DNA from: Chiloscyllium plagiosum
Taxonomy: Eukaryota
DNA length: 64,000 bases
NCBI RefSeq assembly: GCF_004010195.1
Contig: NC_057718.1
Coordinates: 40,130,101-40,194,100 of the forward strand
Direction of reading: 5' to 3'
In this document: piece after piece, positions 6,770 through 57,310 of the stretch
How the letters are laid out: the number at the start of each line of letters is the position of its first letter
Position numbering within the stretch: the stretch's first letter is position 1
Translations under genes and position numbers: made by a program
The notes under the pieces: generated by a model
Database searches by the model: none
Told to the model about the DNA's origin: nothing
What the model saw: only the letters and a program-made list of their open reading frames with translations

Positions 6770-6895
6770 TTGGACTTCTGAATAATCCTTTCAGACTAAA
6801 CGTTAACTCTTAGTGACTCCACAGATGCTGCCAGACCTGTTCAGTTTCTTCAGGAGTTTGTTTAATTTTGAATATCTGCATCCGCAGTTTTTATA
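6770..6895 (+). mobile_element. Degenerate short Penelope-derived element (hammerhead family 2)
   Basis: ttctgaataa...aaacgttaactc...ccacagatgctgccagacctg...tctgcatccgcagt; same family as 22305, 29925, 55322 and 57052. Confidence 0.6.
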
Positions 6896-7764
6896 AGAAC
6901 TGAATGTTGACTTCACATTTTTCAGTGATTAAGTGTATGACTGAACTACTTGCCTGTGACAGATAAGGTACCATTAATGTGAATCAAGCGTACCAGATTT
7001 AACTCGTAACAGATTTGTACATAAATTGGTGAAAAGGGAGGTTTAAAGGCTGATTACTATTCAGCTGACTATTTGAGTTAACTCAGGAGATAAAAGGCAG
7101 GAAAACAATTATGCATTACTTTCCTAAATTTTTGTTTGCTCAAATAAGGAATGTCGACTTGTGGGAAGAATTAAGCCATGATTCACAGACCTAACTCGTC
7201 AGCTTGTCTGGTTGCATTTACATACCCTGGTGTTACTGCAAAATTGCCTGGCTCAGGTACCTTAGCAACTCTGCATAGGGATTATAATTGATGAAGCAGA
7301 TGCTATGTACGCTTCCTTTATGTTCAACAGTATTTTAGCTCTCAAACATGTACCATGACCTCAGAACCAGTGCAAAAATACCAAAAATACATACCTCCAA
7401 TGTGTTTCTTGTGCTGAATTTGCTGCTTTTTTGTGCTAAATGGAATGTCAGGAAGCAAAGCACAAACTAAAGCCATTCAGCCCATCAAGTCCATGTCAAC
7501 TGTACGGAGCAATCTAGTTAAGTGCTTCCCAACTCTTTCCCCCGTAACCCCAATATCAAGACTTGAAAATTGTTGTAATCCGTCAGTGTGAACTGAGAGT
7601 ACAGTGACCTGTTGACCAGCGTCCTAATCACCAGCCTAGTTAGATAGATTTATCTATCTTCAGAACGAATTGTTTTTTTGAGGTTTCAGCCTACATTTGA
7701 GTGTTAATTTCTGAGGTGATGGGAGGCGACAGATGGCAGGCCAGGGCAATGAGTAAGCAAGCAC

Positions 7765-8018
7765 TAAATCATGTTCAACATTAGGGTGAGGGGGGAAAAA
7801 TTTAAAAGGGACCAAAGAGGCAACTTTTTCATGCAGAGGGTAGTGCCTGTGTGGAACAAGTTGCCAGAGGAAGTGGTGGAGGCTGGTACAATTGCAACAT
7901 TTTAAAAGACATCTAGATGGGTATATGAATAGGAAGGGTTTAGAGGCAAATGGGACTAGATTAGTTTAGGATATCTGGTCAGCCCCATAGTCTGTTTCCA
8001 TGCTGTAATCTGACTCTA
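7765..8018 (+). mobile_element. CR1/HER1 LINE 3' end
   Basis: ggtgaggggggaaaaatttaaaagggac...tggaacaagttgccagaggaagtggtggaggc...ctgtttccatgctgta. Confidence 0.85.
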
Positions 8019-8290
8019 ACTAAAGCCAACCAAGAGCTGTAGCAACTTTATAATGTAGAGATGGCATAATCAATAGTTTACCTGATCAAATCACTCTTTG
8101 CTAACACTTTACACATCTTCTCATCCACTGAATAATCAGAATACTGTTTGTTTGATTATTGTCTGCTATCCGAGGTGTCACTATGAAAGTCTATTTTGAA
8201 GAGCTTAAATTTCATAGATTTGAGGTTCTCATTATGTAATCCTTGTTTTGTATTGTACATGATCAGATTTCTTGCTTTTACTATTTATAG

Positions 8291-8440
8291 GATCCTCATG
8301 ATCTTCAGAACACAGATGTGCCAATTATAGCAACAGCTAAACTGGTGAACAAACTGATAGAACTCTTACCTGAAAACCATGGGCAGTACAGCCTGGTGCT
8401 GCACCTGTTAGAAGCAGTTGAAGCCATATCCTCCTTGTGA
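8291..8440 (+). CDS. RAB3GAP2: RAB3GAP2 last coding exon (~exon 35) ending in TGA
   Basis: tag|GAT..., 150 nt, [49 protein letters not shown]. Confidence 0.96.
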
Positions 8441-9149
8441 CAAGAATTGACCAATCTTTATTTAAATAGGTCTTCAGCTATGACCAGCTGTGAAAAGCTT
8501 GGATCGTTTTGATGTAAATGAGCCATTTATGTTTCAATTAATCATGTTCTTGAATACTTATTGTTATAGGTGGGTACTGAAAGTTCTGTTAGACTCTTCA
8601 ATTTCTGTTCTATTATGTGAGATATCCTAATGCCCAAATAGTTTGCATGGCCATATTTACATACAGCTGAAGCAAAGCTCACTCATATCATTTTATTGCT
8701 AGAAGATGGCATATTATGTTGCTGTAGCCATGCACATTAAATGTTAGCTCAAGCAAGTCTGTTCTCAAGGTATTATGTAGTGAACAAGGTTGCATTGTAT
8801 GGTCCATACATCTATAATTTCTAATCCCATTGTTGGAATGTCTGAAAAAATGGGAGGAATTTTGCAACTTGTTTTCCCAGCAGTAAACAATCCAAACATT
8901 CTACTAAGAATAGTGATAATGTCTATTTAAAAAAAGCCTTATATCGCAACTGTATTACACACAAAGGAAAATTTGAGTTTATTTTGTTAATATTAAGACA
9001 AAAGTTTTTATTCCCTCAATTTATTTTGGATTTGTATAAGTAACAAAATGAACAGTGATCAGACACCACTAATGTGTGTACAGATACATTTCCACACTTA
9101 TCAGTGGACAAAAACCAATTGTAATATTGTAAATTATTGATCATAACTA

Positions 9150-9155
9150 AATAAA
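9150..9155 (+). terminator. Candidate RAB3GAP2 polyadenylation signal
   Basis: AATAAA about 710 nt after the stop, followed by a GU/U-rich tract (gagttgctttttgt); further AATAAA at 9952 and 10234. Confidence 0.5.
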
Positions 9156-11374: not shown

Positions 11375-11526
11375 TTAAACACTCCACTTCCCAGCAATAA
11401 CATCCAGGCAACGTGGGCAGGGTGTCAGCGCTGATGTCGATGTATATTTCTTACAGCGAGGACATCTTTCTTTGGTAGCCGAATTAACAATTACTTTGTA
11501 TGATGTTTCCTCAATGATATCGCCAC
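11375..11526 (-). CDS. IARS2: IARS2 last coding exon (~exon 23), C-terminal zinc finger, TAA stop
   Basis: tag|GT GGC GAT..., GGDIIEETSYKVIVNSATKERCPRCKKYTSTSALTPCPRCLDVIAGKWSV*. Confidence 0.96.
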
Positions 11527-12385
11527 CTAAACAAATAGGAATAATTACCATTATATATAGAAATTTGAATGCTTCATCAATCAAATCACTTAGTATTATT
11601 CAATACTGAATTCATCTTGCAGTTCTTTTCTTGCCATTGATTATTTCCCTATCATGACAATTTTATGTTCTCCTCTGTGCCCGCTACAGGCAATGGGGGC
11701 ATACAACCTCATGGTTTTGTGACTAATACAAATTTTAGTGGGACTAAATTTAATTACTGAATCAGATTGATGGAAGAATTGTGAAGCTTGTTTTGAAAAT
11801 TGCTTTTTCTTCCTTTAAAATTGAACAAAAATAATTAATACCCTTTACATGCTTAAGGTATTTTACTTTGATCATGACCCTAAACTATCATCAGCATACA
11901 ATCAAGACTATTACAATATCAATTCTTTTCACAGCAACATGATGCACAGTCACCCTTCCAAGGTGTTTTCAGTGATTTTTAATTATATTTTTAAAAGTTT
12001 ACTATTTGCTTAATATACTGTTTTGCACTAAGAATGAAACAAATATTTCAAAGTAGTTAATTAAATAAAGCAGCAGGTAATGACTGAATCAACCTTCTGT
12101 ATTATGGATTTGAAGTGTCTTGGTGTTGATATCAGTCTTAGTATTGAGCCACATGGTAATTAAATCAAACCCAATTATGAAACATGGACTTGCTTACAAA
12201 GCCAACTGTGCCTGTATTTCCAGAATAAGTGGCTTCAAAACTGATCCTAATAGCAGTTGCTCATTGAGCAAGAATGCATTTATTCTACTGTGAATGATCA
12301 ATTCCAGTTCTTCATCCAATTTATACTTCCAACAAGTTTCTTCAAGAATTCTAGGCTATTACATGAAAGTGTAAGACTGGTTTAC

Positions 12386-12530
12386 CTTCTAAATTGATTT
12401 CAAACTTCCCTTCAATCAAATCTGACTCTGCAGGCATGTTCCGAGGAATAGCAGTAAGCAATGTAGTGTGTGATGCCATCATCAGCTCATTCAGTTGTGA
12501 AGTACTGGATATTTCCTCACCCTGTAATTG
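12386..12530 (-). CDS. IARS2: IARS2 exon (~22)
   Basis: aag|CAA...GAA G|gtaaac, 145 nt, QLQGEEISSTSQLNELMMASHTTLLTAIPRNMPAESDLIEGKFEINLE; an alternative in-frame CAG acceptor lies 9 nt further in. Confidence 0.92.
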
Positions 12531-12693
12531 CTTGACAAAGCAAAAATGTAAACTTAGAATGTACAGTGTTATATTTTCAAAATAGGAGATAGCCTTCTGT
12601 ATACAAAATTACGTTCAAACCCTTGGCTTATATGTACAACAATGTAGCCTTGTGGATCACTCCAAACAAATTTAAAATATTGCAGTCGAGTTG

Positions 12694-13531
12694 ATTGAAT
12701 CTTCTTGACTTTTTTGATGATGTAACTCTGAAGATGGACAAGGGAGATCCAGTAGATGTAGTGTACCTGGACTTTCAGAAAGCTTTTGATAAAGTCCCAC
12801 ACAGGAGGTTAGTGAGTAAAATTAGGGCGCATGGTATTGGGGACAAAGTACTAGATTGGATTGAAAATTGGTTGGCTGATAGGAAGCAAAGGGTAGTGAT
12901 AAACGGCTCCATTTCGGAATGGCAGGCAGTGACCAGTGGGGTACCGCAGGGATCCGTGCTGGGACCGCAGCTTTTTACAATATATGTTAATGATATAGAA
13001 GATGGTATCAGCAATAACAGTAGCAAATTTGCTGATGATACAAAGCTGGGTGGCAGGGTGAAATGTGATGAGGATGTTAGGAGATTACAGGGTGACCTGG
13101 ACAAGTTAGGTGAGTGGGAAGATGCATGGCANNNNNNNNNNNNNNNNNNNNNNNNNNNNNNNNNNNNNNNNNNNNNNNNNNNNNNNNNNNNNNNNNNNNN
13201 NNNNNNNNNNNNNNNNNNNNNNNNNNNNNNNNNNNNNNNNNNNNNNNNNNNNNNNNNNNNNNNNNNNNNNNNNNNNNNNNNNNNNNNGACATATAAGATT
13301 ATGAAAGGACTGGACACTCTGGCAGCAGGAAACATGTTTCCGCTGATGGGTGAGTGCCGCACCAGAGGACACAGCTTAAAAATACGGGGTAGACCATTTA
13401 GGACAGAGATGAGGAGAAACTTCTTCACCCAGAGAGTGGTGGCTGTGTGGAATGCTCTGCCCCAGAGGGCAGTGGAGGCCCAGTCTCTGGATTCATTAAA
13501 GAAAGAGTTGGATAGAGCTCTCAAGGATAGT
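12694..13531 (+). mobile_element. Young CR1 LINE ORF2 (RT) fragment, split by an assembly gap
   Basis: Open frame with VDVVYLDFQKAFDKVPH, SGVPQGSVLGPQLF, KFADDTKLGG and RNFFTQRVVAVWNALP; N gap 13132-13287; no 3' tail visible. Confidence 0.95.
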
Positions 13532-13954
13532 GTTTTAATTAAGACTGAGTTCTTCAGTGGTCTGGGTAAAAGAGGCATCCTTGATTAATGAGACTAAAAA
13601 AAACCCAATCTTAAATATACTTTTAATAATGGAACATCCACAACAGGTTAAGGTAAAAAGATTCCAAAGATTCTCAATCTTTCGAGTGGAGATATTTTTC
13701 TGTACTTGCCATACAGGTATGATCCCATATCCTGAAATTATGTCAGCTTGATCAAAATCTAACAGTAAGGGGGAGAAAAGTTAGTTTCCATCCTGTTAAT
13801 CCCCTTCATAATCTCAACTGTTACAATGAGATCAAATCTCAATCTTCCAAAGACTGACAAAAATAGTTTATAGTCTTTCATCAAAGGACGACCCTTCCAG
13901 AGACCAATCATGAACCTTCACTGTTCTGGAACACAGCAGGCAATTTCAAGTTTG

Positions 13955-14505
13955 CAGATAACAGGCTTCAATAATAGAGATATGGAATTAAGGAGAAAGG
14001 AAACTATGATAAACTTATATATGATACTGTTTGACTTGCACTGGAGTATTGTGTACATTTCTGGGTACCACATTAGAGGAAGTATGAGACTGCATTGGAG
14101 AGAGTGCAGAAAAGGTTTATGAAAATGGTTCTCGAGATGAAACCCTTCAGTTATTAGGAAAGAGTGGAGAAGTTGAAAGAAAACAGTTCTGAGAAGTCAA
14201 ACAGGAGTATGATAGAAGGTTTAAAAATCATGAGGTTTCTAGACAGAGTAAATCAAGAGAAATTGTTCCAGCTCGTACAGGGATCGAGAACCAGAAGTAC
14301 AGTTTTAAAGTATTTAGTGAAAGAGGCAAGTGCGAGGTGAAAAGAACAAAAAAAAGCAATGAGTAGAATGCACTGACTGGAAGTGGGTTGCAGACAGATT
14401 CAATTGAGAGTATTGGAGGGTTACAGGGAATAAGCAGGAAATTGACACCATGTTAAAACACTCAGACCTGGAGCAGAGACTGGGCTGAATAGCTGCTTGC
14501 ACTGT
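13955..14505 (+). mobile_element. Degenerate CR1 3' region
   Basis: ctggagtattgtgtacatttctgg...gcattggagagagtgcagaaaagg...gggctgaatagctgct. Confidence 0.75.
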
Positions 14506-14519
14506 AAAAAGTCTCAGTT

Positions 14520-15400
14520 ATTGCTTCAAATGCAAGTACATCCTTCTTTAATACAGCAGAGAAAACGGAGTACAACATTTATGGTATGGTCCCACCAAAG
14601 CGCTACACGATTGTAACAAGACTTTGTGATGCCTTTTCCACAATCCCTTTGCAGTAAAGGCCAACATGCAATTTTCTTTTCTCATGACTTGTACCTGCAT
14701 GTTAACTTGTGTTCCTTGTATGTGATTTTTCTGATCGATACTTAGAAAATTTACACCAAAAATTATTCTGCTCCTCTATTCTTGAAGCAAAGCCAGTAGA
14801 GTAACTTCACACTTTCCACATTATACTCACTTAACATTAATCTCTTAACAGCACCTCCATGACCTCCTCACAATTTACATAATCATCACACTAAGGCAAA
14901 GATTCAGAGAGTAATGTATCCATCATCAATACAGATTGTAAATGCTGAAAGCCCAGTGGTGATCTGTTCAGTACTTCTCTAGTCACAACTTACCAACTAT
15001 CTGCAACTGTGTTAACATATCACTCCCAACTCTATGAGCGATGAAATTATTTATTAAACCTTTTTGTGGACCTATTGAATGGCTTTTGAAAATCCAAGTA
15101 TACTATTCATCTGACTCAACTAATAGAGTCATCTACTCTACTAGTTGGCATCATCAAAACTTAAAATTTGTCAAACAGGATTTTCCTTTTGTAAAGCCAT
15201 TTTGATTTTTTTTGTGCATTTAGACTTGCGAAGTATCAGGTTCCAGCAATACTCCTGATGCCTACAATGAGATGAACTGGCCTGTAGTTCTCCTTTTTAT
15301 TTCTTCATCCTTAAATGGCAGTGTTATTTTGTTAACTTTGAGCCATGTCATGTCAGCAATTAGGTTCTGGGGATTATTGGAATTTAGTCTCGAGTTCCTT
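14520..15400 (-). mobile_element. Old CR1 RT remnant
   Basis: Reverse-strand remnants (ggcttttgaaaatccaagtatac = YLDFQK; aactggcctgtagtt = NYRPV). Confidence 0.6.
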
Positions 15401-15829
15401 TCGCACTTTTTTCATTGCTGATGGCAATTACTCCAATTTCCTCACCTTCCACCTACTCATTTTTCACAAACCATGGATCCAATAATGTCCAATTTCTGTT
15501 AGAATAATACAACTTAAAAACAACTACAATTATTATTATTTGGGAGTACAGATCTTATAACTGCTATGAGACATGCTGTTGAATTTGTTGGTCTTGCACT
15601 CAACAGGACAGACGGAAGATTACCAACATTTAAAGAGAACATTTATGCTGCATGAGAAAAGAATGTTGTGGTCAGTAAGAGGACTCCAATTTTTGAGGCA
15701 TTGCCAGGATGAGTACACCATGGAAGTTATTCACCATTGTTTAAATTCAAACCTGATTGCATTGACAAAGACTGTGCTTGCAAACTTAGAAAGGATATGG
15801 AGGTGCTGGTGCTGAATGTTAGACTGGGG

Positions 15830-15962
15830 TGGACAGAGTTAAAATTCACAACTCCAGGTTATAGGTCTAACAGGTTTATTTGAAAGTACAAGCTTTCAGA
15901 GTGCTGCTCCTTCGTCAGGTAACTTGTTGGATTATAACCTGGTGTTGTGTGATTTTAAACTC
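15830..15962 (-). mobile_element. Short fold-back Penelope-derived element with hammerhead core (family 3)
   Basis: Inverted arms aaaattcacaactccaggttatag.. / ..tataacctggtgttgtgtgatttt; minus-strand core CTGACGA-A-GGAG cagca CTCT-GAAA-GCTT at about 15890-15918. Confidence 0.75.
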
Positions 15963-16403
15963 CGAAGTGTCCAACTTTAGGTGCAATTCTGTATTTAGAC
16001 AGCACCTACCAAACAGTCTCAAGTATGTTAACAATTACACTAAACTAATTTAAGGTCATCAGTTGGGCTGGCAATTACACTTGGTAGAAGCTACACAGAT
16101 TCATATACATGGCTCTATTCTGTGTAAGAAGCAAGAAAATGTCCATACATTGCACCTTATTGTTTCCTGATACATTTCCCATGGCAGCACCTCAGCGAGG
16201 GTATAGTACATTCTTCCTGGTAATGCCTTGACCAAATGGAGTACACTTGTCAACCAATCAACATGTTTTTTTCATGCATTTTAAACTGCCATTCCCTTTG
16301 AATGTTGGCATCCTTACACCTATTCTGATCATTGCAAAATGAAAAGCTTCAATAGTGGGGCTCTTCTCAGCAAAACTCAACTATTACACATTGAGAAGAT
16401 TAC

Positions 16404-16594
16404 CTCCATCAATTCCAGCAACAAACTGGGCTCGATGATAATGGTTATATCGTATTCCAGTGCATTTTTGCCAGGTATAGAGCTCAAGAAGCTGTCTCTT
16501 ATTGCGCAAGCACCTTCAATAGCCTCCACAATGCCAGGCTTTCTCCAAACAGAACTGGCCTTTATCCAGCCAGTTCGAAACACACTCTGAGGCT
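16404..16594 (-). CDS. IARS2: IARS2 exon (~21)
   Basis: cag|AG CCT...GAG|gtaatc, 191 nt, [21 protein letters not shown]...[11 protein letters not shown]. Confidence 0.96.
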
Positions 16595-16687
16595 CTGAAA
16601 GAAAACAATTTAGATATGCATTTATTGTGCTTTGAGTCACAAATTTTAGAATACAAATGCAAATAACAGCACTGAAAAAAATGCTAC

Positions 16688-16833
16688 CTTTTTGGTTTGA
16701 TTGGTGTTGGAATACTTCCTCTGCAAGGTGAGGCAGGATTGGGGCTACAGAACGTGTGATTACATCTAATACTTCATCTAAAACTGTCTGACATGATAGA
16801 CGCTTGGTGCTTTTCTCATCTTCACAATATAAT
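16688..16833 (-). CDS. IARS2: IARS2 exon (~20), anticodon-binding domain
   Basis: cag|A TTA...AAA G|gtagca, 146 nt, [43 protein letters not shown]; 93-nt intron to the next exon. Confidence 0.96.
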
Positions 16834-17757
16834 CTGCAATTTTAATACAATAATGTTTAGGCAGACATAAACTTTAATATCTGCAGTAGAAAATAAAATG
16901 CTACATCAGCTCCATTGCTAACTCCTTAATGAAATAGTCTATGTCAACATATAATCAGCTCTAAAGAATGACAGGTAACAAAGCATGCTACATAAACATC
17001 AGACACCAAACAAAGCCCAGACGTCTCTGACCTCTAACAGGATGACTGTCACACGGGTTGCCCCACTATTTTGGAGATCAGCAATGATTACAAATTAAAC
17101 AAGGCCAGTCATGTCAGTACTATCACTGTAATTGCAGGACCTATGCTGTTAATCTAACAATGGGCTCATTCTTCCTAGTCCTTAAGAGCCTCTCCTTAGA
17201 AAGCTCAAGTCAAGAGTGATTAAAATATGCAGCATCATGTGGAAGATAGCAGTTTTCTTGACTGCTGCCTCAATATTGCTCTAAATATCACTAGGGGGCA
17301 CTGTGTTGCAATACACATGATCTATAAGATATACTGTACTGCAGCAATTCGACAGCATGCCTCTTGTCAACAACCCCTACCATCAAACAGGACAAGAGAA
17401 AAGATTGTGTGAATGGCATCACCTCAAAGTCACACATCCTGACATGAATATACCTCATCACTCACTTATATTAAAGTACTGGAATTCCCCTACTTAACAT
17501 TAAGTGAGCATTTCTGCACAAGGACTGTAGAGATTTAAAGGTATCACTGCCTTTTTAGAGCAACTGAAAGTCAGTAAATACCAACGTTGTGGTGTTGCCA
17601 TATCTGAAAACTAATTTTGCGGCAATATAAACTGATCCTGATCTGATCTACACATACAACCATTAGGGGGTTTAGAAGTCCATTTAAAGTACTTAGTAAA
17701 TGGCTTTTTGGTTTGCAAATGAAGTTTCAACATTGCCATTATGAATCTTATACTAAC

Positions 17758-17864
17758 CGATCTTTGATGATGCTGAAGTAAAAGTTAGAGAGTTCTCGGT
17801 TAATAAATGCCAACAGAAGGCGAATAACTTTTCCAAAATCACACTCTTTATAGGCCTCTGTAAC
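17758..17864 (-). CDS. IARS2: IARS2 exon (~19)
   Basis: cag|GTT...GAT CG|gttagt, 107 nt, VTEAYKECDFGKVIRLLLAFINRELSNFYFSIIKDR. Confidence 0.96.
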
Positions 17865-17963
17865 CTGAATCAAATTAAAACAAATTTTGCCAATAAATAC
17901 TTGTTTCAAAACATACACATTTCAGCTACTTACAAACAGTAATAGAAATAGAAAGATTAAGTA

Positions 17964-18290
17964 CAGGTAGAAGATCCTTTATCTGAAAATACAAAACCGA
18001 AAAGCTCTGAAATCCGAAGGTTTTGTGCGAAGTTTTTTCTCATTAACAAGATTGTTTGGCATGCAAACAGTTAACCCAAGTCGACACCTACTCAATGCGT
18101 GTCACTTAGTTGCGACTTGAAGGGGCATGGCCAAGCAGCGACTGTCCTGTTCTTACTTAGAAGTCTGCTCCTCCAGTAAGATTTTAAAAAAATTTTACCA
18201 TTAAACCATTAGTCATTCTGAAAACTGAAAAATTCCAAATTCCAAAAAACAGCTGGTCTCAAGTATTTCAGATAAAGGATTGTTTACCTA
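17964..18290. mobile_element. Tc1/mariner (Tigger-like) MITE
   Basis: Imperfect ~28-bp TIRs caggtagaagatcctttatctgaaaatac / gtatttcagataaaggattgtttaccta, flanked by TA on both sides. Confidence 0.75.
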
Positions 18291-19349: not shown

Positions 19350-19617
19350 ACAAAATCCTTAGTGCAGAAGCACACCATTCAGCCCATCAAGTCCATAACT
19401 TCCCTCTGAAGAGCATCCCCCCAGACCGAGCCTCCCACCGTATCCCTGTAACCCTGCATTTTCCATGGCTAATCTACCTAGCCAGCACATCCCTGGACAC
19501 TGGGAAATTTAGCATGGCCAATCCACTTAACATGCACATCTCTGGACGGTGGGAGGAAACTGGAGTTCTGAGAGGAAACCGATGCAGACACGGGTAGAAT
19601 GTCCAAACTCCACACAA
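19350..19617 (-). mobile_element. HE1-like V-SINE, 5'-truncated and diverged
   Basis: aatttagcatggccaatccac...gaggaaac...aaactccacac central domain. Confidence 0.8.
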
Positions 19618-19651
19618 TCATCCATAATTCATCTGCTGACAGTGATATTGT

Positions 19652-43200: not shown

Positions 43201-43319
43201 TACAATCTGTTACTGAAGTGGAGCAGTGGTAAACTGGGATTTTTCTATGTTATGTACCAAGGTTATTTGCTTTAAAACACTCTCTAAATCAAGTTGTGTC
43301 TGAAGGAAGATTTTTCTTA

Positions 43320-44915: not shown

Positions 44916-47777
44916 CTGTCTTTTCAAAAACTCTCCCTTAACATAGTCACAGGTGGGAATCGTCATTAAAGATTGCAGAGTGTTCAATTCCACTTGTGAC
45001 TCCACTGACAGTGAAGCGGTCAGTGTCCATCTACAGAAAAACCTGGACAATGTTTAGGCTTAGACTGATGTGGAAAATTAAATTTATGACTTCATACGCG
45101 AAACAGCGACCATTTCTAACAGAAGAGAATGAAAGCATCACCATTTTTAGATTCAAAAGCATTACTGTAGCTGAATCTCCCACCATCAGCACCCAAAGGA
45201 GCACCATGGATCGGAAACACAACTGGACAACAACATAAATACAAGATAAAGGCAGAAGTTGAAACTTCTCACCTCCTGACTTCCTAAACCCTGTCCACCA
45301 TCTGCAAGGTATACATATGGGGGTGGGGGGTGTTGGAACACTCCCCACATGCCTGGATGAGCATATTTCCAAACATAAACTCAAGAAGTCTGAAACATTC
45401 AAGACAAAACAGCCTGTTTGATCGACATACCATCCATCACCTCCACTATTCACTGCGTCTGCTGCAATATACAAGAGCAGCAGTGTGTCCCATCTAACAA
45501 ATGCAATGCATCAACTCATCAAGACTTACTGACCAGCATCTTCCAACTTGGTACCTCTACAACCTCGAAGGACATGGACAACATATGCACAAGAACTCCA
45601 CAACTTGCAAGCTCCCCTCCAATCAGTCATTATCCTTAGAACCATCTTGCTGCTCCTTTAGTGCTGCAAGGTTCAAATCTGGAAGATCTTCCCTCGCAAC
45701 TGATGGGTCATTAAAAATGGACAATATATGCTGGCCTCGCCATGACAGTCATATCTAATTAATGTATATTAAAAAAATTATACATTTTATCATAATATTT
45801 AATGTGTGCATTTATTTTGCTCTATCCATCCAAATAATTTAGTTTTAAAAGCATGATTTTTTTTAAAAATGCACCTGCAAGATGATTTTGCATGTCAAAA
45901 TGTCTCAAAGCATTTCGGAGGAGAACTGGATATCAACCAAGTTCCAGGAGCACAGGTAGGTTTTAAGGCAACATTTGAAGGAGAAGAAATGGGACCCTGG
46001 ATAGAAGATTTAAGGATATTTTATGATTGTTATTTTTATCTCAAAAACTTCACACCTTTTCATACAAATAAAACCCTGTGGTTAACTATATTGCACCACT
46101 CCCAACAATCCATTCGCTTTTCAACATTTTTCATGTGATGAATATGGAGGAATGATAATGTTGATAGAATCCAAAATCTGGAGGACAAAATAAACTCCCC
46201 AATAATGAAATGCTTCTTCTATCTTGTGAAATGAGCAGGTATCCATTCGAGCAATGTTGACTGCTAAAAAAAAACTGTCATTGGATCAGATGAACATGAA
46301 AATTTCAATTATTAGGTAGAACTCTTTAAAAAGTACCGACTTACTCAGTCTATGTAGAACCATTTAAACACAAGGGCTACATTGACTCCATACAATGCAA
46401 AGAGTAGCATCAGCCTGAAAACAGTATTGAGACATTTACTGCTACATTTAAAGCAACATATATCTTTCCCAATCTACACAGATCTGAATATTCTTTTGAT
46501 CTTGACTGAAAAGCAGTAATATTTTGTACCACATCTTATGTTCTTAATTTGGGAATGAGAACCACATCTTAAATGCCCTAGTGAATAAGTTTAGCACAGA
46601 ATGACTATAGTTAAGATACAAATCTATTTTACAGCAGGACCTAGGCATTCCACATTCCAATCCCAAGTTTAGATGCTAAGACAGACAGGATGTTCTAGCT
46701 TAGCAGGCGGCTCTCCAACAAGTTAAAGACATAGCATGAGAGATAATTGCATGGACGTTATGAAGGATGTTCAGAACAGGCGGGTAAACATTGTGAGATT
46801 AAAAAAAAAGCTGTTGATGTGACATCTCCAAGAATGTTGCCAAAATTACTATTCCTTAAACAGTATCAAATAAAAAATAATCTGGTCATTCACCTTATTG
46901 TCATTCATAATCCTTTGGTGTATGTAAAACTGCAGTTGCATTTATTGCACACCCACTGTGTTTTTAAAGTAATTAGTACATCAAGCATTTGGAGATGTTA
47001 TATAAATACAAGATGCTGCTTTCTAACTGCTTATACCGATGAATAGTGTAATCATTCAATCATTTATTAGGAATAAACACTGACTGAAATATTTTTACAT
47101 TTTTATTTTACCTGAAAATAAAAATTATTTTATTGGCTTTAAGATTAATTTCTTTCACTTTCATTTAAGTGTTAGTCCATTCACCTTCTACTAAGGTGCA
47201 CTCCCATCCACTAGTACTCTCAAACACCCAACCAGTAATACCTGCACTGAATTCCAAGTAACCAAATGGTTAGACATGTTCAAATGTTTTTACAGAATGT
47301 CATAAACCAATACAAAGCTTGCAAAAAGGTATCAATTCTGCAACAAACAGCAAATAAATTCACCTTTGAAATTTTATTGTGTTAACGCTTAACATGTCAA
47401 TATTTAGTTGCTAAGTGATTCAGTCAGTCAATATAAAAAATGCCCAGCAATAAATGAATTACACATACTGTCTTTATAGATTTATGCCATACTATAAGAT
47501 TAAAGTTCACAATCTTTAAACTTTTTCATTTTTACATTGAAGTTTAGATCCTTTGTCTTCAGAGACATATTCGAACATATTTTGGAAATATTTGGTAGAT
47601 GAAGCAGCAACAGATTTAATGTTTTAGGTCAATGATTTTTCATTAGTTCAGAATCCTGATGAAAGTCATTAAACCAAATGATAATTCTGTTTCTCTTTCC
47701 ATCGTGTTACAACACAAATGGACAGTTGAACCAAATCAGCCTTTCTGCCTCCATTATGACAACACAGTAAAATTATA

Positions 47778-48072
47778 GGGTGGCATGGTAGTGCAGTAGT
47801 CAGTACTACTGCCTCACAGTGCCAGGGACCTGGGTTCAATTCCAACCTTGGGCGATTGGGAGAACTGCAAACTCCAGACAATGTCTACATGCTCTGATTT
47901 GCTCCCACAGTCCCAAGATGTGCAGCTTAGGTGGATTGGCTGTGCCAAATTTCCCATAGTGTGCAGGTTAGTTCGGTTAACTATAATAAATGTGGGGTTA
48001 GGGGGTAGGGTCAGATGCTCTTTGGAGGGTTAGACTTGATAGGCTGAATGGCCTCTATTTGCACTGCAGGCA
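47778..48072 (+). mobile_element. HE1-like SINE, diverged
   Basis: gggtggcatggtagtgcagtagtcag...gggttcaattcc...cccacagtcccaagatgtgcag. Confidence 0.85.
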
Positions 48073-48144
48073 TTCGAATTCAAAGACAATCAAAATTGAC
48101 CATAATGGTTTCAAACCAGTCTTTATGAATAATCAATCCCAGAC

Positions 48145-49015
48145 TGTGAGAATAATCAGTTCTTGACACTGGTTTGTATCTTAAACAAAAGACTTAGCAA
48201 TTTATTAACAAAACAATAGTAATAGTAGAGAAAGATTAAATAACAAAGTAATCTAACTGGTCTATGCTTTAAACCATATCCTTTATATTTTATGTTGTCA
48301 GGCCCACTCACACAAAAGACAGGCAAACAAACAGTTATGGGATAAATAAAAGAAAAATAACAAAACTGTCCAGATTATTGAAGCAATTTACACAGTGCAC
48401 TGTTCCACAGCCATAGGTGATGGTTTCTTGGTTGACTTTCTGAAGATGTCAATCAGGGTCACCTTTTCAGTTCACTCAGATAATAGTAGTAATACTTAGT
48501 TTTCTATTCTCTAAATTTGCAAGAGTTGATAATGGAGGTTGGTCAGGGGGCTTTTACATCTTCCTGCTATAACATCAACAGCCAAATTTCTTCTCACTGA
48601 AAACATTGTCCAAAACCAAATTCAAACTCTGACCACTCCCTGACAGACTGACCAATTCCTCCACAAGGAGTTACCATTCAATATCTGCCATCTGCTTGAA
48701 CACAAGGCTTTTCCCAGATTTGGCTCAAACCTATTCCCAGGTACTGTCCTCGTTAATAGCCAACTTCTGCAATCTGTTTAAACATAATGCTTGTATCCAG
48801 TGATGGAGCATCTATAAAACTTTTTGATCAGGAACCAACTGCAGTTAACTTCCTGGCCCAGCCTCATAAACAAACAAAATCTTGTTTGATCTGTTTTCCT
48901 TTTAACACGAGCTGTTACCCATAGTTCAAAATTCAAATTTAGCTCACAGTTTTGGCTCAAAACCAAAAGTGATTAACAAAAAATTAAAGAAATGAAAACA
49001 GTGTGGACTCTAACA
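48145..49015 (-). mobile_element. Possible solo LTR
   Basis: Minus strand begins TGTTAGAG and ends CTCACA, with AATAAA about 55 nt from the end; no clean TSD. Confidence 0.3.
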
Positions 49016-51559
49016 ACAGATACATCTTGACCTACTGAGTATTCATGGATTTTCTGTTCTAATTCAGATTTCCAACATTATCGGGGTACTACTTTTTGTG
49101 TCAAACACATTCTGGAAAGGGTTGATGACTTTCTCACTATGACCAAAATGTCTTTGTGGTGCTACAAGACTGGATAGTTATATCTGTCACAAAGTTACCT
49201 TAATTATATTTGATCTCAGGATGCAAATATTAGTAATGGAACTTGGACCTGGTATACAAAGATTCTGTTTTGGGAACAGGTGGAATTGTGCATAAGGAGA
49301 AGTAGCATGTCAACTGTAATGTTGTAAGCTTGCGTTCGCGTCATCTTATTGCAAAATGTTATTTTGGAGCTTTACAACACTAACCAAATTGGACAGCTAA
49401 CTCACAGCATGGTGTATTGCGACGTGGATTGTGTTGAACCCTGCAGAGAATGTTTTATGGACCACAGTCGTTCACAAAATGGAAAAGATTCTGATATAAG
49501 AAACCATAATCACATGCTGAGCTCCCTTGTAATTTCATTTGTGGAAAAAGTGTGATGCCCATGCAGACAGTACACATCATGTTGCAAGTAGACTACTGTT
49601 TCAGAGATGTCTGAAATCCTGCAAGTTCTACTGTGCCACTCATGTCATCGTTCATAATGCAGGAGTTAGCTGAGAGCTCAGCTATTTGTTCTTAATACCA
49701 ATTCCTGTACCACTGAAAACACTAGGAGATACCAAAATAATTTGCATGATTTGAATCACGTATGTAATATGTTTTAAAGATCTTCATGGATTGGCAGTTT
49801 TGGGTTGGCTTCCTTGCATTTCAATTCCTTCAGCATTTTTGTCTTCCACTACACATCAGGAGGTGGAATATTAAGCTGGACTGGGAGTATTATATGAGTT
49901 TTGATTAAAATGTACTACTAACTGTCCCCCCTTGACCCATTCAGCATAGAGTCCAAGAGTTTTGTGTGGCTGCTCTATGCCCACACAGAGGAACAGTATT
50001 CCGAAGCCTACAGAATAATACAGGAACGAGGCTAGAGTATGGAGAGTGTGTGCATGGGATTACTAGTTTCTGGATAAACGTTTAACAGTTTTGGTCCCTT
50101 ATCAAAGGACCGAGGTTGACAGATTTTTAATCAGTAAAGGAGTCCAGGGTTGTGGGGAAAAGGCAGGAAAGTGGAGTTCAGGATTATCAGATCAGCCATG
50201 AGCTCACTGAATGGCAGTGAGCCAATAGCCTATTTCTGTTCAAACATATTATGGTCTTACGGGAGATGGGTTTCCTCTTTTTCAGATGTTCGCAGTAAAC
50301 ATGAGGCTACAATCTAAGGAGACTCCAAGGCACTTGGGGTATGTCCAATCCTAATTAATTTACAACAACTAAAGACCTGCAGTTTACTATTAGCCACTCA
50401 GTTGCTGATGTGGGAAGTAGTGACTTTGGTCTTAGTTGAGACTGGATGGAGGTGCCAGCCATTAAAATATTGTGCCATCATTTATATATCCTGGGACAAA
50501 CTATTGCTAGGACCTTCAAAATTATTTTCCTGGGTAGCACGAGCCAAATCAAATGCACAGACAAATTTATTAGAGGTGGTGGGGGCATGTCACTCAAGGT
50601 TTGAAGAGAATTGGAGCTTTAAACAGTCTTAGAGAAGTCTATCACTTTGGGTCCTTGTTAAAGATTATTTGGTTTCCAAGTTAAAGCCAACGTTTTCAAT
50701 TGCTTTACCATTGAAGAGGATGAACTGCAGCTCGATATTGGAAAAGTCTGACAACTTTCAAGAGCAGATCATATCATCACAAAATGTCACATGCTGATGA
50801 ATGATCAATAAATGCAATACTTGCTTTGAGTATGCACTGATGGTCAGTATCAATGCTTATGTTAAATGCATAATGAGCACTCTTTTGGAACATACAGGAA
50901 TCTATTAACAATCTTAATCCATTTAACCTCCATGTGGTAGCAATGTACTGAGGACTTAATGTACTTGAACTTATGCAAGTTTCCTGTCAACACAAATGAC
51001 TAATTACAAGTGCAGTGAATATTCTACCAATATTGAATTGACTGTAAACTCAAGTAAGAGTCTAGGATATTTGCATCATACTGCCTCACTTCAATTTCAA
51101 CAATAGAATTTTGTCTCAACCAAGTTAGATTTGCAAAAAAAATAGAAAAAGGCATGCATGGTTTCAATGAGAACCATTCCACATTGCTTTACCTTAAAGG
51201 CTTACTCGTACTAAAGAGACTACAGTTAAAGCACTTGAATGAGTACATTGAATGCTAATATGCCTGGGTAATTTTATAGTGGTACTGGACTGATTATTTT
51301 CAGTGGAAAATAATTTCATTTTCATTCTCAAATTTCAAACAAAAATAAGTTTATTCAAGTCAACAGTCCAAACAGCCTATCAGATGATTCACCTAAATGA
51401 CTCTCAGAAGCTGTGGCTAAACTGCAAAGTGGCAGGAATAAAATTCCTTGTTCTAGTTTGGAGACAGTCCCTCTTTCGCCAGCGAAAGTAGCATTGTATG
51501 TATAACAGAGCTAAATATCCAAATGTGTCAGACAGTGTCAAATGCAAAAGTATCCATCC

Positions 51560-54500
51560 ACAAGTCATGGAAAGAATATCCCTAGGATTAAATAAAGTTA
51601 ACTGTACTATACTCCTGTATTGAGGCCACAGGATTTAAGTATTGCACTACCAGGATTGGATTGACAGAAACAACGCAGAAGACGCAACCTCCTGCAGCAA
51701 AAACAAACTGCCTTCGTTGCACAGCAAAACAACCCAACATCACAAATTGAACAGGCAGCATTCTAACAGCTGAAGGCTGACACCTAAAGACAATATGGAA
51801 AGCAGACTGCAAATGATGAAAGAGAAAGCGCGACACTTGCAATAGCATGCTGACCATCACAACATACAAAGCATTCAGAAAGATACGAGCCAGTTACAGT
51901 ATAGACCAACCCATGGGGTCAAAATCCTCTTCATTCATAGTTTGGTATTTCTTTTCTAAATGATGAATGTCTTCCATCAATGCTGCAAAGAACATTTTCA
52001 AATACTCCTCGACCGTGACTTCACAGTTGCAACTGCACTCTCCAGGCAATCAGTTACGATCCCACGGTAGAATCCGTGGTGAATCATTATTGATAGGATA
52101 GTCATTGAGTCACAGTACAGAAAGAGGCCCTTCGGTCCAAACAGGCCATGCCGAACATAATCCCACCTGCCTGTTCCTGGCCCATATACCTCCAAACCTT
52201 ACCTATTATCCAAATATCTTTTAAACGTTGTAACTGTGGCCACATCCATCACTTCCTCAGGAAGTTCATACCATATGCGAACCACTCTCTGTATAAAAAA
52301 TTTGTCCCTCGTGTCATTTCTAAATCTCTCTCCTCTCACCTTAAAAGAAGGTGTCCATGTCTTGAAATCCTCCATCCTAGGGAAAGTGACTTACCATTTA
52401 TCCCATCCATACCTCTCATGATTTTATAAACATGAATTTGAATTAGAATCCCCACAGTGTGGAAACAGGCCCTTCAGCCTAAGAAGTCCACACCGACCCT
52501 CTGAATAGTAACTCACCCAGACCCATTCCCCTATCCTATATTTTACCCCTAATATACCTAACCTACACATTCCTGAACATTATGGGCAATTTAGCATGGC
52601 CAATTCACCTAACCCGCACATCTTTGGATTCTGAGAGGAAAGGTGCACCTGGAAGAAACCCACGCAGACATGGAGAGAATGTGCAAACTTCACACAGCAA
52701 GTTGGCCGAGGCTGGAATCAAGCCTGGGTCCCTGGTGCTGTGAGACAGCAGTGCTAACCACTGAGCCATTGGGCTGTCCTTCTATAAGATCATCTCTCAA
52801 CCTCCTAAGCTCCAGCTGAAACAAGCAATCAGACGCATGAGAAACAACAGTCTGCGAGCCCTAATAGCATTCCAGCTAAGGTTTTCAAGGTTATTGGGTT
52901 TTTATTCAAATCAATACACGACACACTTATTCTATGAATTTGGGTGGAACAAGACCACCTTATCATCTCCTCAAACTGCAGTAATACAAAAATGGCAACT
53001 ATCTTCAAGAAAGGAAAATCATGCTATGGGAACTATCATGGTATTTTCCTCCTATGCAGAGCAGGGAAAGTTCTGACAGGTGTCCTCCTGAATTATCCAC
53101 TTCTTGTGGCTGAGTAATTCCTCCCAGAGACATATTTGTGGGCCTGTGGGGCTTTTGACCTTCCACGGACACCTCAGACATGTTCCTTATCGCTAAACAA
53201 ATTCAAGGAGAATGTTGAGAACACTAATGTAATGTGGATTTTATGGTGATTAACTGGACCAAAGCATTTGATTCAAGAAAATTGCAAAACTCTCATCTCA
53301 ATCTTGCAACAGTGTCACGTAAAGACTATATGTGCACCCATCAAGTCTTCTCCACCATTCAATGAGATCACGGTTGATTTATTAGTCTTCAACTCTACTT
53401 TGTCCTAAAACCTTTGATTTCCTTACCGATTAAACATCTATCTCCACATTGAATATATTTAATAAGCCTCAATAGCTTTCGGTGGTAAAGAATTCCACAA
53501 ATTCAGTATCTTCAGAGAAGAAATTCCTCTTCATTCGACGATACGACTGCAACTGGCTTGACTGCAAGATCTTGAACAGCCTCCTTCAAAACCCGGACTG
53601 TGTTAGGCAAGGCTGTGAGATAACCCCAAACTATTTACAAGCTATCTGACGATAGTTATTCACCTCAACAAAGATCAACTGCCCTGTGGTGTCATTACAA
53701 ACTTTCACCAAGATGAAACAGTCTAACCTCAATCACCTCTGTACCAAAACTAAACTGATCACCATATACAAATATGATTATTAGTTTGCAGAAGTCTTTG
53801 GAGTCATTGCTCATCCTGAACAGGATTTGCAAAACACTCGCCATCTCTTCATTTCTGGATAGAAGAGATTTGGGCTGACCTTAAACACAGCCAAAACAAA
53901 GGTCCTATCAATGCAGATCTAGTCAGTCAAATATTCCACCTTCTATACATATGGAAAGAGACGCTCTGTAATGTGCTGTGTGTCCCCTATATCTTCGCAA
54001 TCACACTATCAAAAGTTCATCATTGGTGAGGAGATCTAATACCAGATCAGCTGGGCAAACTATGTCAGCAAATATTTGACAACGTTCACTACATTTCCAT
54101 AAAAATGCCAATTTATAGAAAAATTGTCATCACCACATTCCTGTATTGCAATGGGACATGGACTTTGCACCAAGACATACAAGAGCTAGAGAAATTTCAC
54201 CAGCAATTCCACCACATTCTCTATATTCAATGGGAGCACTGTTGAACAAATACAAGTGTCTTTCTTGAAGCCGACTCTAAGTATTCAGATAAACAACCTG
54301 AAGATCAATAATATGGACAATGACTGGACATTGTATCCAGATGGCTGAAAAGCATGTCTCCAGTCAGGTCCTAATTTTTCAAGTCACCTCTCAAAAAGCC
54401 AGCATTCAAAGGGAGGACGATGTAAATGCTACAAAGATACTCTGCAGCTCTCTATGAATTGCAGCAGCATTGACATTAGCGACTGAGAGAACTTTGCTAC

Positions 54501-54620
54501 AGATCCTTCGAAAGGGCAAGAACTTGACATTCAAGCTGCATCAGCTTCGAGTCCAAACACTTTAATAATGAGGAAACACCGTAACTCTTTGGATCCCATG
54601 ACTTATAGAATTTTCTAGCT
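51560..54620 (+). mobile_element. Degenerate RTE-clade LINE with nested insertions
   Basis: Remnants KARHLQ.HADHHN, TIFKKG...GNYHGIFLLCRAGKVL, DTSDMFLIAKQIQGEC.E, WTKAFDS and FGLTLNTAKTKVL. Confidence 0.75.
52100..52815 (-). mobile_element. CR1/HER1 3' end with nested HE1 SINE (52436-52780)
   Basis: CR1 tail ggcccttcggtccaaac... resumes after the SINE at ctataagatcatctctcaacctcc. Confidence 0.88.
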
Positions 54621-54787
54621 TATGTGGGTCAAGAATTAGCATGTTCAGTCAAGTGAAGAAACAGGCCCTTGGAAACTCCCAACATGGAGTGAATCAAGGG
54701 GCTGTTGATGGCGACAAGCCTGGGAGAATGGCACATTGAAGATAGTTTCTTTTTATTTGATTCTCCCATGACCATGACTGAATTTAG

Positions 54788-54991
54788 AGAGAAAGTGAGG
54801 GCTGCAGATGCTGGAGATCAGAGCTGAAAATGTGTTGCTGGAAAAGCGCAGCAGGTCAGGCAGCATCCAAGGAACAGGAGAATCGACGTTTCAGGCATAA
54901 GATTCCTGAAGAAGGGCTTATGCCCGAAACGTCGATTCTCCTGTTCCTTGGATGCTGCCTGACCTGCTGCGCTTTTCCAGCAACACATTTT
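54788..54991. mobile_element. Young fold-back hammerhead-family-1 element with 15-bp TSD
   Basis: 77-bp inverted arms 54825-54901 / 54917-54993 (1 mismatch); TSD catgactgaatttag at 54773-54787 and 54992-55006. Confidence 0.93.
54901..54938 (+). ncRNA. Minimal type I hammerhead ribozyme motif
   Basis: gattc-CTGAAGA-A-GGGC ttat GCCC-GAAA-C-GTC^gattc; stem I 4/5 bp with a U-U pair, stem II 4 bp, palindromic ACGU stem III, GUC triplet ending at 54933. Confidence 0.78.
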
Positions 54992-55321
54992 CATGACTGA
55001 ATTTAGTCAGACTCCAAAGGAAACTTGACCAAACACAAGATAATATTGTTTATTTGTTACTTTCCATGCCCTATGAAGGTGATGCCAAGAATGATTCTCG
55101 TGTGTCACTGGAGCATTATAAACTCTGTAAAAGTAATATAACTTTATAGCTTAAGATCTGTTGCTGAGAATTCAGGGAATGTGCTTCACAGTTCTATGTT
55201 AAATTGAGGTAATTTTCAGCACCCATGGCAACAAAGTGAGTTTCTGCTCTTGCTGTCACATTGAAGACACCCATAGTCGATTACTTAGGTAAAATTCTTC
55301 CTAACAGCCTCAAATTTTATA

Positions 55322-55550
55322 AAACAAAGAGATGCAGATGCTGGAAATCTGAAATAAAAACAGAAATTGCTGCAGAAACTCAGCAAATCTGCCAGCATCT
55401 TTGGAAAGAAAGCAGAGTTAACAAGTCTAGTGACTTCTTCAGAGTAGACCCTTCTTCAGAAAGGTCATTGGACTCAAAACATTAACTCTGCTTTCTTGCA
55501 TAGGTCCTGCTAGCCCTGCTGAGTTTCTCCTGCAATTTCTGTTTTAGCTT
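55322..55550. mobile_element. Fold-back hammerhead-family-2 element, eroded
   Basis: Arms aaaacagaaattgctgcagaaactcagc..gaaagcagagttaa / ttaactctgctttc..gctgagtttctcctgcaatttctgtttt. Confidence 0.8.
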
Positions 55551-57051
55551 CAATTATTATTTACTTGGAAAGCAGTTCCACTGCAATTGCATATCTCGAT
55601 GTGTTATACTCACAGGTGAACTTGACGTGGAGTCTTGGAATGATATTCTTTCCATTTACAAAGCAATTTGAGAATAAAATCAAATGTCTCACCCATTTAG
55701 CTGTACTGAATTATTTCTCTTCATTTATCATTTACCATAATTAGTCTACAATTGGAAAGCTAGCATTTAATACGCAGTGTGAATAAAGGGTGAGTAAGGA
55801 AGGAAAATAGTTCATCTATCCAATCGCTTGTAATAATTGGAAACTGACCCTGGTCCTTTGACTTAGATTAAACTTCAACTGAGGGAAACAGATATGAGTT
55901 GGAATCCTGGGAGTCTCAAAAATCTGGATTATTTCACCAGGTTAAAGTAGCCTAGCTGCTGCTGTCAGAATTTTCTAAGGTCGAGACAGCCTTGGGAGCT
56001 TGTGAGTAGGTAAATTGTTTTTACTTTTCATATACCAGACGAGAAAATATTTTTACAATATTGGATACAGTTCGATAGTTTCAGTTGAGTAGGGAAGCTG
56101 GTCTATTGATTTGCAGTCAGAATGACATAAAGTGGATTATACTAACTCTGTATTATAACTCTACACTTAAGAACCAGAATCGCAGTTGCAGATGGCTCCA
56201 AATGTCGAAACATAGGAGTCGTAGTAGGCAACTCAGACCATCAAGTTTACTTCACCATTCAATACAATCATGACTGATGTCCACTTCAATACCTTTCTTC
56301 CCCACACTGTCAAAGGAAACTTGCAAGAACTTGAAAATGCTTCTGGAAGCATCTTCTGTTACAACATACTCTTCCACCTGTGAAATCATTAATTCCTGTG
56401 CAACCAGGGTATGTACAAAAATCTCAACAGTTCCCAACTGAAGAAAGATTAATTAAGTGAAACTAATAACTTAAACCCAAAATATACTTCCATTGTGTGG
56501 TTAGGTCTGTTAGCGGGTGACAGTAAGGGTTCATTGAGAAAGGAGCAAGAGAGGTTTGTATTCAGAAGCCTGGTTAATCCGAACCCCAACGTCCTCATTC
56601 TTGGGAATGATCCATTGAACAACAATTCCAATAGAAAATACACTGTTGTGTCATGATTCCTAAAACGATAGTTTTGTTAGAGACTACCAGGTTTTAACAC
56701 CATTAATACAGAAATCAGTTGGCTGGATGATGGCTAGGTAGGGTGAAATACTAAACAGTCCATGCAGTTCAGAGATTGTACTGCCCTATTTTGGAAGGAT
56801 GGTGTTAGAAACAGCAGTAGGGAATAGAACAAGTCACCGGAATAGAATCATTAAATTCTGGAGAAAGAGGGTTAAAATTTCAGAACCAAGTTCCAAAGAA
56901 CAATCATATTACACTAAAAACATTAATACTGTTTAGCTCTCCACAGATGCTGTGCAACCTCTGAACCACAGGGACTCTTCACTGTTCCATCCTTCCTCTA
57001 TGTCACCCAGCCAGCTGATTTCTGATGTCAGAAGTCTTAATTTGTTAACCA

Positions 57052-57310
57052 AAAAGCAAAACACTGTGGATGGTGGAGATTTGAAATTAAAAAAAAGAGT
57101 AAGTGTTGGCGAAAGTCAGCAGGTTTGCCAATATGTGTGGAGAGAAAAACAGTGTTAAAATTTCAAAATGAAGTTCTGAAGAAGAATCATATTAGACATG
57201 AAATGTTAATACTGTTTCTTGGTCCTCAAATGCTGCCAGATCTGCTGATGTTCACCAGCACTTTCTCTTTTCATTTCAGATCTCCAGCATCCACAGTATT
57301 TTGTTTTTTT
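57052..57310. mobile_element. Fold-back hammerhead-family-2 element (another fragment at about 56860-56952)
   Basis: Arms caaaacactgtggatggtggagatttgaaat / atttcagatctccagcatccacagtattttg; centre ttCTGAAGAagaatcatattagacatGAAAtgtt. Confidence 0.8.

Follow-up and report, generated by a model that had tools for sequence, protein, structure and literature searches.

Minimal type I hammerhead ribozymes (min-HHRs) have been described in the terminal repeats of metazoan Penelope-like elements (PLEs) under the consensus 'NNN CUGANGA H G..C GAAAN palindrome NU H NNN' (Cervera and De la Pena, 2014, PMC4209133; here and below, published systems are compared as far as the accessible portions of the cited sources go). 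Approximately 4,000 motifs were reported in the coelacanth and 9,000 in Xenopus, belonging to 6 and 8 major families, respectively, and the published families exhibit many compensatory changes together with one base between positions 9 and 10.1, the G10.1-C11.1 pair and the palindrome (PMC4209133). Insertions of Penelope/Poseidon elements show a terminal repeat, an inverted 5'-truncated copy and a 30-40 nt tail (PMC3846280, PMC8557442, PMC11167929). An inverted partner, a one-ended tail and a target duplication form the insertion signature of PLEs (PMC3846280, PMC8557442), and the tail has been traced to reverse transcription that begins at either of two internal sites (PMC11167929). In this work, hammerhead-bearing repeats were analyzed in 64,000 nucleotides of the Chiloscyllium plagiosum genome (contig NC_057718.1, positions 40,130,101 to 40,194,100; hereafter, the window). 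These repeats are very probably 3'-end pieces of endonuclease-bearing PLEs belonging to three lineages, each of which inherited the min-HHR of the terminal repeat.

The window holds IARS2 of a carpet shark. This host gene, encoding the mitochondrial isoleucine-tRNA ligase, was located at 11378..58405 (minus strand) by nine coding-exon matches, and the exon tested showed 100% identity to two bamboo shark proteins and 96% to a whale shark protein. An initial reading of the window, made from the letters only (the sequence-only reading), had named 12 loci, all of which were found to be repeat copies of hammerhead-bearing families; 11 of them lie in introns of IARS2, and the one at 6770 lies beyond the last coding exon. 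All counts given below refer to this vertebrate window or to public sequencing runs.

The shark motifs share with the min-HHRs of metazoan PLEs the core, the extra base after A9, the G10.1-C11.1 pair, the palindromic stem III and the short stem I, as well as the occurrence of several consensus families per genome, mostly as solitary copies, with opposite-strand pairs (PMC4209133). This kind of motif has been known since 2014, and the shark copies are a further case of the PLE min-HHR. Whereas the published list comprises, in its accessible part, 56 motifs from 40 species with no cartilaginous fish, the copies described here come from a shark, and in contrast to the published motifs, stem II is short (4-5 bp) in the three non-coding families (F1-F3). 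The density of intact motifs, four per 63.7 kb or approximately 60 per Mb, looks far above the 4,000-9,000 per genome of PMC4209133 and hints at a far larger load than that reported for coelacanth or frog, although it is an upper-leaning guess from a window picked for its density. A large load, as proposed by the sequence-only reading, is supported by family F1, for which a single 176-base stretch retrieved 56,438 contig records in one public run and 2,504 RNA reads in another.

Head-to-head arms, a tail on one arm, target duplications and a ribozyme beside the frame start are features shared with described Penelope/Poseidon insertions (PMC3846280, PMC8557442, PMC11167929). Unlike these, the insertions in the window are mostly of 90-270 bp only, and their target duplications measure 13-17 bp, compared with 8-10 bp in rotifer PLEs. 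Similarities were also found with the non-LTR retrozymes (retrozymes without long terminal repeats; bioRxiv 10.64898/2026.07.22.740005), which are non-coding, carry a type I hammerhead, are related to PLE terminal repeats and include one chondrichthyan genome. Nevertheless, such retrozymes form tandem arrays, head to tail, in which one strand carries two or more ribozymes, whereas the shark copies are dispersed monomers or head-to-head pairs; self-comparison of the window revealed dispersed and inverted copies only and none of the head-to-tail tandem units that define this class. No shark-specific description was found in a literature search outside of which lay subscription journals, Repbase and Dfam, and the supplementary tables of the retrozyme preprint may name families like these.

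Hammerhead-bearing families of the window

The sequence-only reading had distinguished at least four unrelated families, three of them non-coding (F1, F2 and F3) and the fourth a coding Penelope element. However, F1 and F2 can be aligned along their whole length, and when the comparison was confined to the body downstream of the predicted cut, 10 out of 10 pairs were homologous (z 5.2-15.1, equalled by at most 3 of 2000 shuffles). For the 41 cross pairs among F1/F2, F3 and the coding family, z did not exceed 3.0 and the best value was equalled by 34 of 2000 shuffles. On these alignments, the repeats form three lineages: F1 plus F2, F3, and a coding family of Penelope/Poseidon type. Compensatory-looking changes between F1 and F2 are suggestive of covariation: a C-G pair adjoins the cut site in the former and a U-A pair in the latter, with F1 stem I only partly present in the window. 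The covariation that had been claimed across all families has to be worded differently, since stem II compared over three unalignable lineages represents conserved structure rather than strict covariation.

A direct link to a reverse transcriptase (RT) and a GIY-YIG endonuclease was found for one lineage. A 5'-truncated, broken long arm of Penelope/Poseidon type at 23432..24558 (minus strand; tblastn with proteins P0001 and P0008, six-frame reading) comprises the RT end, GIY-YIG, the terminal repeat and a tail, and is accompanied by an inverted second arm at 24526..25093 (plus strand; Pfam PF01541, tblastn) that begins just before GIY-YIG and continues through the terminal repeat. Both arms carry a hammerhead, while only that of the second arm, at 25020, had been seen before. 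In the latter, the core and a 6-bp stem II are kept, but stem III is one base short and the palindrome is absent; arm scoring showed that the hammerhead of the long arm (C3 at 23546, minus strand) is eroded, with its 6-bp stem II intact. The coding arms matched shark PLE proteins at 53-85% over the 80 residues queried, and the best matches of the Penelope-type protein were carpet-shark sequences. No cysteine finger was found in the RT-endonuclease linker, which places the element in the Penelope/Poseidon clade according to the rule that endonuclease-bearing PLEs whose linker has no zinc finger belong there (Craig et al., PMC8557442). The order of RT and C-terminal GIY-YIG without a linker zinc finger was found in the 23432-25093 element only. 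Its short arm ends approximately 40 nt before the long arm, and the whole is flanked by a 13-bp target duplication with 1 mismatch (23419 and 25094). A frame starting with ATG lies at the border between core and stem II, as is also the case in the lizard Poseidon element (PMC11167929). Self-comparison and tblastn identified a 3'-end remnant of the same family at 32921..32990 (minus strand), with tail and without hammerhead.

A TATATAAA box, a possible terminal-repeat promoter, was observed at 24968-24977, approximately 50 nt upstream of the coding-family hammerhead, and again at approximately 44510-44520, about 80 nt upstream of an F3 hammerhead. The endonuclease region of this Penelope element is also included in annotated shark isoforms of MAP3K7 and ZSWIM7 (proteins P0010 and P0012), suggesting exonised or mis-annotated insertions.

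Motif frequency was assessed with a descriptor (CUGAnGA, an optional base, a stem II with a minimum of 4 bp, GAAA, NN, U, H) scanned on both strands, using dinucleotide shuffles as control. Three matches without mismatch were found (15918 and 36518 on the minus strand, 54906 on the plus strand) versus a shuffle mean of 0.045, with 0 of 200 shuffles equalling them, and five matches with at most one mismatch versus a mean of 1.08 (0 of 100 shuffles). Within the window, the motif frequency at up to one mismatch is above the shuffled control, a comparison that the sequence-only reading had proposed for the whole genome. With up to two mismatches, 18 matches versus 14.7 in shuffles (equalled in 6 of 30) were not significant, so that eroded copies are identifiable by homology only. 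Every arm was therefore scored by its coordinates, which yielded 13 arms with both core halves scorable after exclusion of three minus-strand arms without half of the core (54901, 55442 and 57164). Core mismatches numbered 0 in six arms, 1 in two, 2 in one and 3 in four, and the six zero-mismatch cores (CUGAnGA, GAAA, U16.1-H17) represent F1, F2, F3 and the coding family. An intact core combined with a palindrome and a stem II with at most one mismatch was kept in 4 of the 13 arms (15918, 36518 and 44439, minus strand; 54906, plus strand), far fewer than the 'about 12 motif-bearing copies' put forward earlier.

Following one unpaired base past A9, the pair G10.1-C11.1 is G-C in the motifs at 36518, 54906, 44439, 25020, 23546, 29931 and 20859, and G-U in that at 15918. 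A palindromic remnant of stem III was found in five arms (ACGT in two, AGCT in two, ATAT in one) and is absent from the other eight; ACGT and AGCT do occur in the best-preserved copies, as had been proposed. The first three positions of stem I are paired in 8 of the 13 arms, with letters that differ between families, and F1 arms of the window show 1-2 contiguous pairs only. The pairing of stem II, previously attributed to all families, holds for the arms of F1, F3 and the coding element and fails in the eroded F2 copies at 6772, where it is unpaired, and at 57176, where the core letters are kept and stem II is eroded. Two details of that description were corrected: the stem GGAGC/GCTCC is perfect in neither F3 copy, and the copy at 20778, given as GAAACGTC, actually reads GAATTTTT. 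The 23546 hammerhead, the 32921-32990 remnant, weak F2 remnants, the stem I pairing, the target duplications and the tails had been overlooked. None of the 9 matches to Rfam covariance models with E up to 10 was to a hammerhead family; the mir-680 matches at 54861-54957 were discarded, being explained by the fold-back of that locus alone.

Insertion architecture and parents of the copies

The non-coding families repeat the layout of the coding element in miniature. Their anatomy consists of the 5' strand of stem I, core, stem II, palindrome, a body of approximately 60 nt and an optional tail, and all three lineages have in common head-to-head arms, a 3' tail of approximately 35-40 nt on one arm and target duplications. 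One arm ends approximately 32-41 nt before its partner in 5 of the 6 two-armed loci compared (those at 20779 and 56861 were left out), with all lineages represented; the exception is 57045-57312, in which both arms are long. Target duplications of 13-17 bp were found at 5 of 13 tested loci, three of them F1, one F3 and one the coding element.

F1 is represented by three loci. The first (20779..20895) combines a minus-strand arm (20779-20862) with 2 core mismatches and a lost palindrome with an inverted plus-strand hammerhead head (20863-20895), between copies of a 17-bp target duplication with 1 mismatch (20761 and 20894). The second (36395..36546, minus strand) comprises a long arm (36395-36519) with an intact core (C3 at 36518, predicted cut after 36491) and a 27-nt inverted stub on the plus strand (36520-36546), with an exact 15-bp duplication at 36380 and 36547. 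The third is a head-to-head pair (54788..54991) whose long minus-strand arm (54788-54901) lacks the CUGA half and whose short plus-strand arm (54902-54991) has an intact core (C3 at 54906), flanked by an exact 15-bp duplication at 54773 and 54992. In F3, a long arm with an intact minimal hammerhead and a 3' tail (15797..15925, minus strand; C3 at 15918, predicted cut after 15890) faces a short inverted arm without hammerhead (15921..15962, plus strand) that ends approximately 40 nt short of it. The other F3 copy (44360..44565, minus strand; C3 at 44439) has an intact core and one stem II mismatch, reaches about 125 nt upstream of the ribozyme and shows an exact 14-bp duplication at 44346 and 44566. 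This insertion (44346-44579) splits a fragment of a long interspersed element, which we take to be CR1-like, and the frame of the latter resumes past the target duplication.

The F2 copies are mostly more eroded. The best preserved (29925..30027, plus strand) has 1 core mismatch, 4-bp stems I and II and the palindrome ATAT; that at 22306..22395 (plus strand) has a small deletion at the border of core and stem II and a paired stem I, and that at 6772..6890 (plus strand) has the long 3' end and an eroded hammerhead with 3 core mismatches and an unpaired stem II. Head-to-head pairs were found at 55321..55552, with a long minus-strand arm without GAAA and a short plus-strand arm with 3 core mismatches, and at 57045..57312, where the plus-strand arm keeps the core letters (C3 at 57176) with an eroded stem II and the minus-strand arm has no CUGA half. 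An eroded copy with a short inverted stub and 3 core mismatches lies at 56861..56958 (plus strand), and weak remnants near 47600-47702 and 49017-49079. In two copies (22312-22395 and 29931-30044) the frame starting at the CUGA core is open through the whole element, and the F2 body contains a pyrimidine tract ending in CACAG followed by ATG, which resembles a splice acceptor. The segment 56861-56952 is similar to the middle part of the 57045-57312 pair, and the eroded F2 copy at 56861 is enclosed by an inverted repeat (56709-56784 / 56949-57024, 74%).

Architecture, agreement with the motif consensus and, for one lineage, the link to RT and GIY-YIG all support hammerhead-bearing Penelope derivatives, as the sequence-only reading had concluded. 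Several observations weigh against a PLE origin of every family. At 8 of the 13 tested loci no convincing target duplication was found, and none at the older F2 copies; the window contains no coding partner for F1, F2 or F3, and no candidate was returned when an F2 frame was compared with proteins, a weak search. The filing of F1, F2 and F3 among PLEs rests on architecture and motif, and with the bodies of the three lineages unalignable, common descent of their ribozymes would follow from class membership.

Published work on PLEs suggests how such copies may arise. The PLE protein would nick the target and prime reverse transcription at one of two sites approximately 40 nt apart, which would generate the short and the tailed 3' ends; copying would frequently stop at or just past the 5' edge of the ribozyme, a second, inverted copy would be added before the junction is closed, and the copies, once inserted, would decay neutrally. 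Sequence upstream of the cut site is kept in the copies, which points to uncleaved RNA as the template, in agreement with in vitro work in which mutants of the ribozyme retained the ability to insert (PMC11167929).

The ends of F1 copies were further compared in public runs, using positions 36350-36525 (176 bases) at 88% likeness. Part of this stretch was present in 18 of the 24 listed runs, from three related organisms, with 56,438 contigs in X15, 7,098 records in X1 and 2,504 reads in X19, a raw RNA run; X20, with 0 F1 reads, provided no test, and no RNA run was among those listed as holders in the run search with the F1 stretch. Loose ends piled up at 36393-36395 and at 36434/36437, corresponding to two 3' ends, and at 36519, the front edge of the ribozyme. 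Head-to-head joints from 36510/36511 to 36519 were found in 23 RNA reads and also in contigs; fold-back copies are therefore frequent and also occur in RNA.

A possible, though doubtful, refinement, which would be a sub-case of PLE descent and does not exclude it, is that F1 and F2, and perhaps F3, are independent non-autonomous mini-elements, similar to short interspersed elements or to monomeric retrozymes, whose RNA of approximately 125 nt would start at the ribozyme and be mobilized in trans by PLE proteins. The clustering of 5' ends at the ribozyme front edge fits this proposal: the pile-up at 36519 appeared in each of the three runs that yielded data, with 411 reads in one and 464 and 75 contigs in the others, the F2 copies of the window start within approximately 5 nt of CUGA, and animal retrozymes are derived from PLE terminal repeats according to the preprint (bioRxiv 10.64898/2026.07.22.740005). 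However, a few additional upstream letters, from which the 5' strand of stem I is formed, are common to the loose ends at 36519, and some of these ends have a longer upstream stretch in common, indicating that a longer parent exists; the F3 copy at 44360 likewise runs about 125 nt further upstream. Moreover, the tandem arrays by which retrozymes are defined are missing from the self-comparison, and the copies retain the part upstream of the cut, which would be absent from an RNA that had cleaved itself. The short copies may be truncations of longer elements or non-autonomous elements that move on their own. Exact target duplications and two defined 3' ends make the young copies well suited to studying the role of the Penelope ribozyme and the question of why insertions stop at its front edge.

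Ribozyme activity and likeness of the motif

In published assays, min-HHR monomers showed no cleavage and dimers little (PMC4209133), a lizard motif required protein (PMC11167929), and 8 of 9 frog dimers were without cleavage. With almost no stem III, the shark ribozymes would likewise need a palindrome-mediated partner or the help of a protein. The lowest-energy folds of single motifs gave the three-way junction in 0 of 7 cases (z 0.17 to -2.48), a method that is uninformative here, and the 54788-54991 pair folds as one hairpin (-166.7 kcal/mol) that buries the motif. Solitary and fold-back copies are thus probably silent in place. In X19, no pile-up of molecule ends and hence no sign of cleavage ends was detected, in a poly(A) single-cell library unsuited to this purpose; no go-back joints of circular RNA were found among 15 of the 19 joints listed in that run, whose library would miss circles.

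It is very improbable that the intact intronic copies are active ribozymes which cut the IARS2 pre-mRNA, as monomers or palindrome dimers, and are kept for a host role. Three of the four intact motifs (15918, 36518 and 44439) do lie on the pre-mRNA strand, two share the palindrome AGCU, so that long-range dimers are possible, and RNA reads contain the F1 sequence in either orientation. Nevertheless, the published monomers and dimers behaved as described above, the predicted folds gave no junction and a buried motif, and intactness tracks youth, with three of the four intact motifs lying in copies flanked by exact target duplications, the outcome expected under neutral decay.

Likeness of the motif across lineages is explained by inheritance if the core and its pairing were conserved in active parents while stems and flanks diverged. 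The convergence suggested by the sequence-only reading explains it less well, since every feature listed there matches the published Penelope terminal-repeat consensus. True convergence, with a hammerhead evolved or captured separately by each of several unrelated repeats, is hardly credible, for although the bodies of the three lineages are unalignable and some Chlamys subclades may have independently gained or lost hammerheads (Craig et al., PMC8557442), F1 and F2 are homologous, PLE-specific tails, inversions and ribozyme position are common to all lineages, and hammerheads are reported to be universal in PLEs with a C-terminal endonuclease (PMC8557442).

F1 variants in public runs and neighbouring repeats

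Among 40 of the 43 variants listed for the F1 stretch, none fell in the core (36512-36518) or in the 5' strand of stem II (36507-36510), and the loop has variants. A variant at 36488 creates a pair in place of the U-U mismatch in stem I of F1; it was present in 9-15% of organism A records (X19, X1) and in 0.1% of organism B depth, suggesting that it marks a subfamily in which all 4 bp of stem I are formed.

Plus-strand T-to-C changes in X19, equivalent to A-to-G on the ribozyme strand, were biased toward one read orientation at 7 of the 8 listed T-to-C sites (odds ratios 2.0-5.3). These sites are the GAAA core adenosines 36495-36497 and positions 36424, 36439, 36462 and 36504, whereas the eighth, 36391, showed the opposite bias with few reads. 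At 36495-36497, the change reached 12.4, 10.8 and 7.6% in one read orientation versus 2.7, 2.8 and 2.1% in the other, and the same change was found in 0.06-0.27% of contig depth in X15. Such a pattern would be expected if fold-back RNA were edited by ADAR, although it is unconfirmed and may instead reflect a sequencing artefact or a mixture of loci. A speculative and rather unlikely scenario would then be that approximately 100,000 intact-looking minimal hammerheads exist in the lineage, many of them transcribed intronically as fold-back double-stranded RNA, and that the host neutralises them by A-to-I editing of GAAA. If true, this would represent a host RNA-editing brake on the ribozyme of a retroelement; a literature search found no account of hammerhead editing.

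Several results count against editing. X19 and X15 come from different organisms, and contigs lose rare variants, which weakens the comparison with X15. The mirror-image A-to-G signal was inconsistent (odds ratios 0.40-4.19, with 36471 going the wrong way), and G-to-A at 36466 was equally strand-biased (5.2). Signal-loss errors are read as G in two-colour sequencing, and the T-to-G changes lean as such errors would. In addition, most reads of one orientation could come from a small number of strongly expressed loci.

Scans of viral and metagenome contigs gave no useful match: two exact-pattern scans of viral contigs returned no match, and the 81 loci retrieved from metagenome contigs, none with the flanking sequence of the element, were taken as chance matches.

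Other repeats are also present in the window. Near-perfect local duplications were found at 33444-33510 / 33800-33866 (67 bp, 100%) and 21578-21706 / 21727-21856 (130 bp, 96%), which may have arisen recently or may be artefacts of the assembly. A further abundant family of repeats, approximately 300 bp long, occurs at 26032-26361, 30044-30372, 36630-36892, 47771-48084, 52442-52774 and 61592-61761, and one of its copies directly abuts the 3' end of the F2 copy at 29925.

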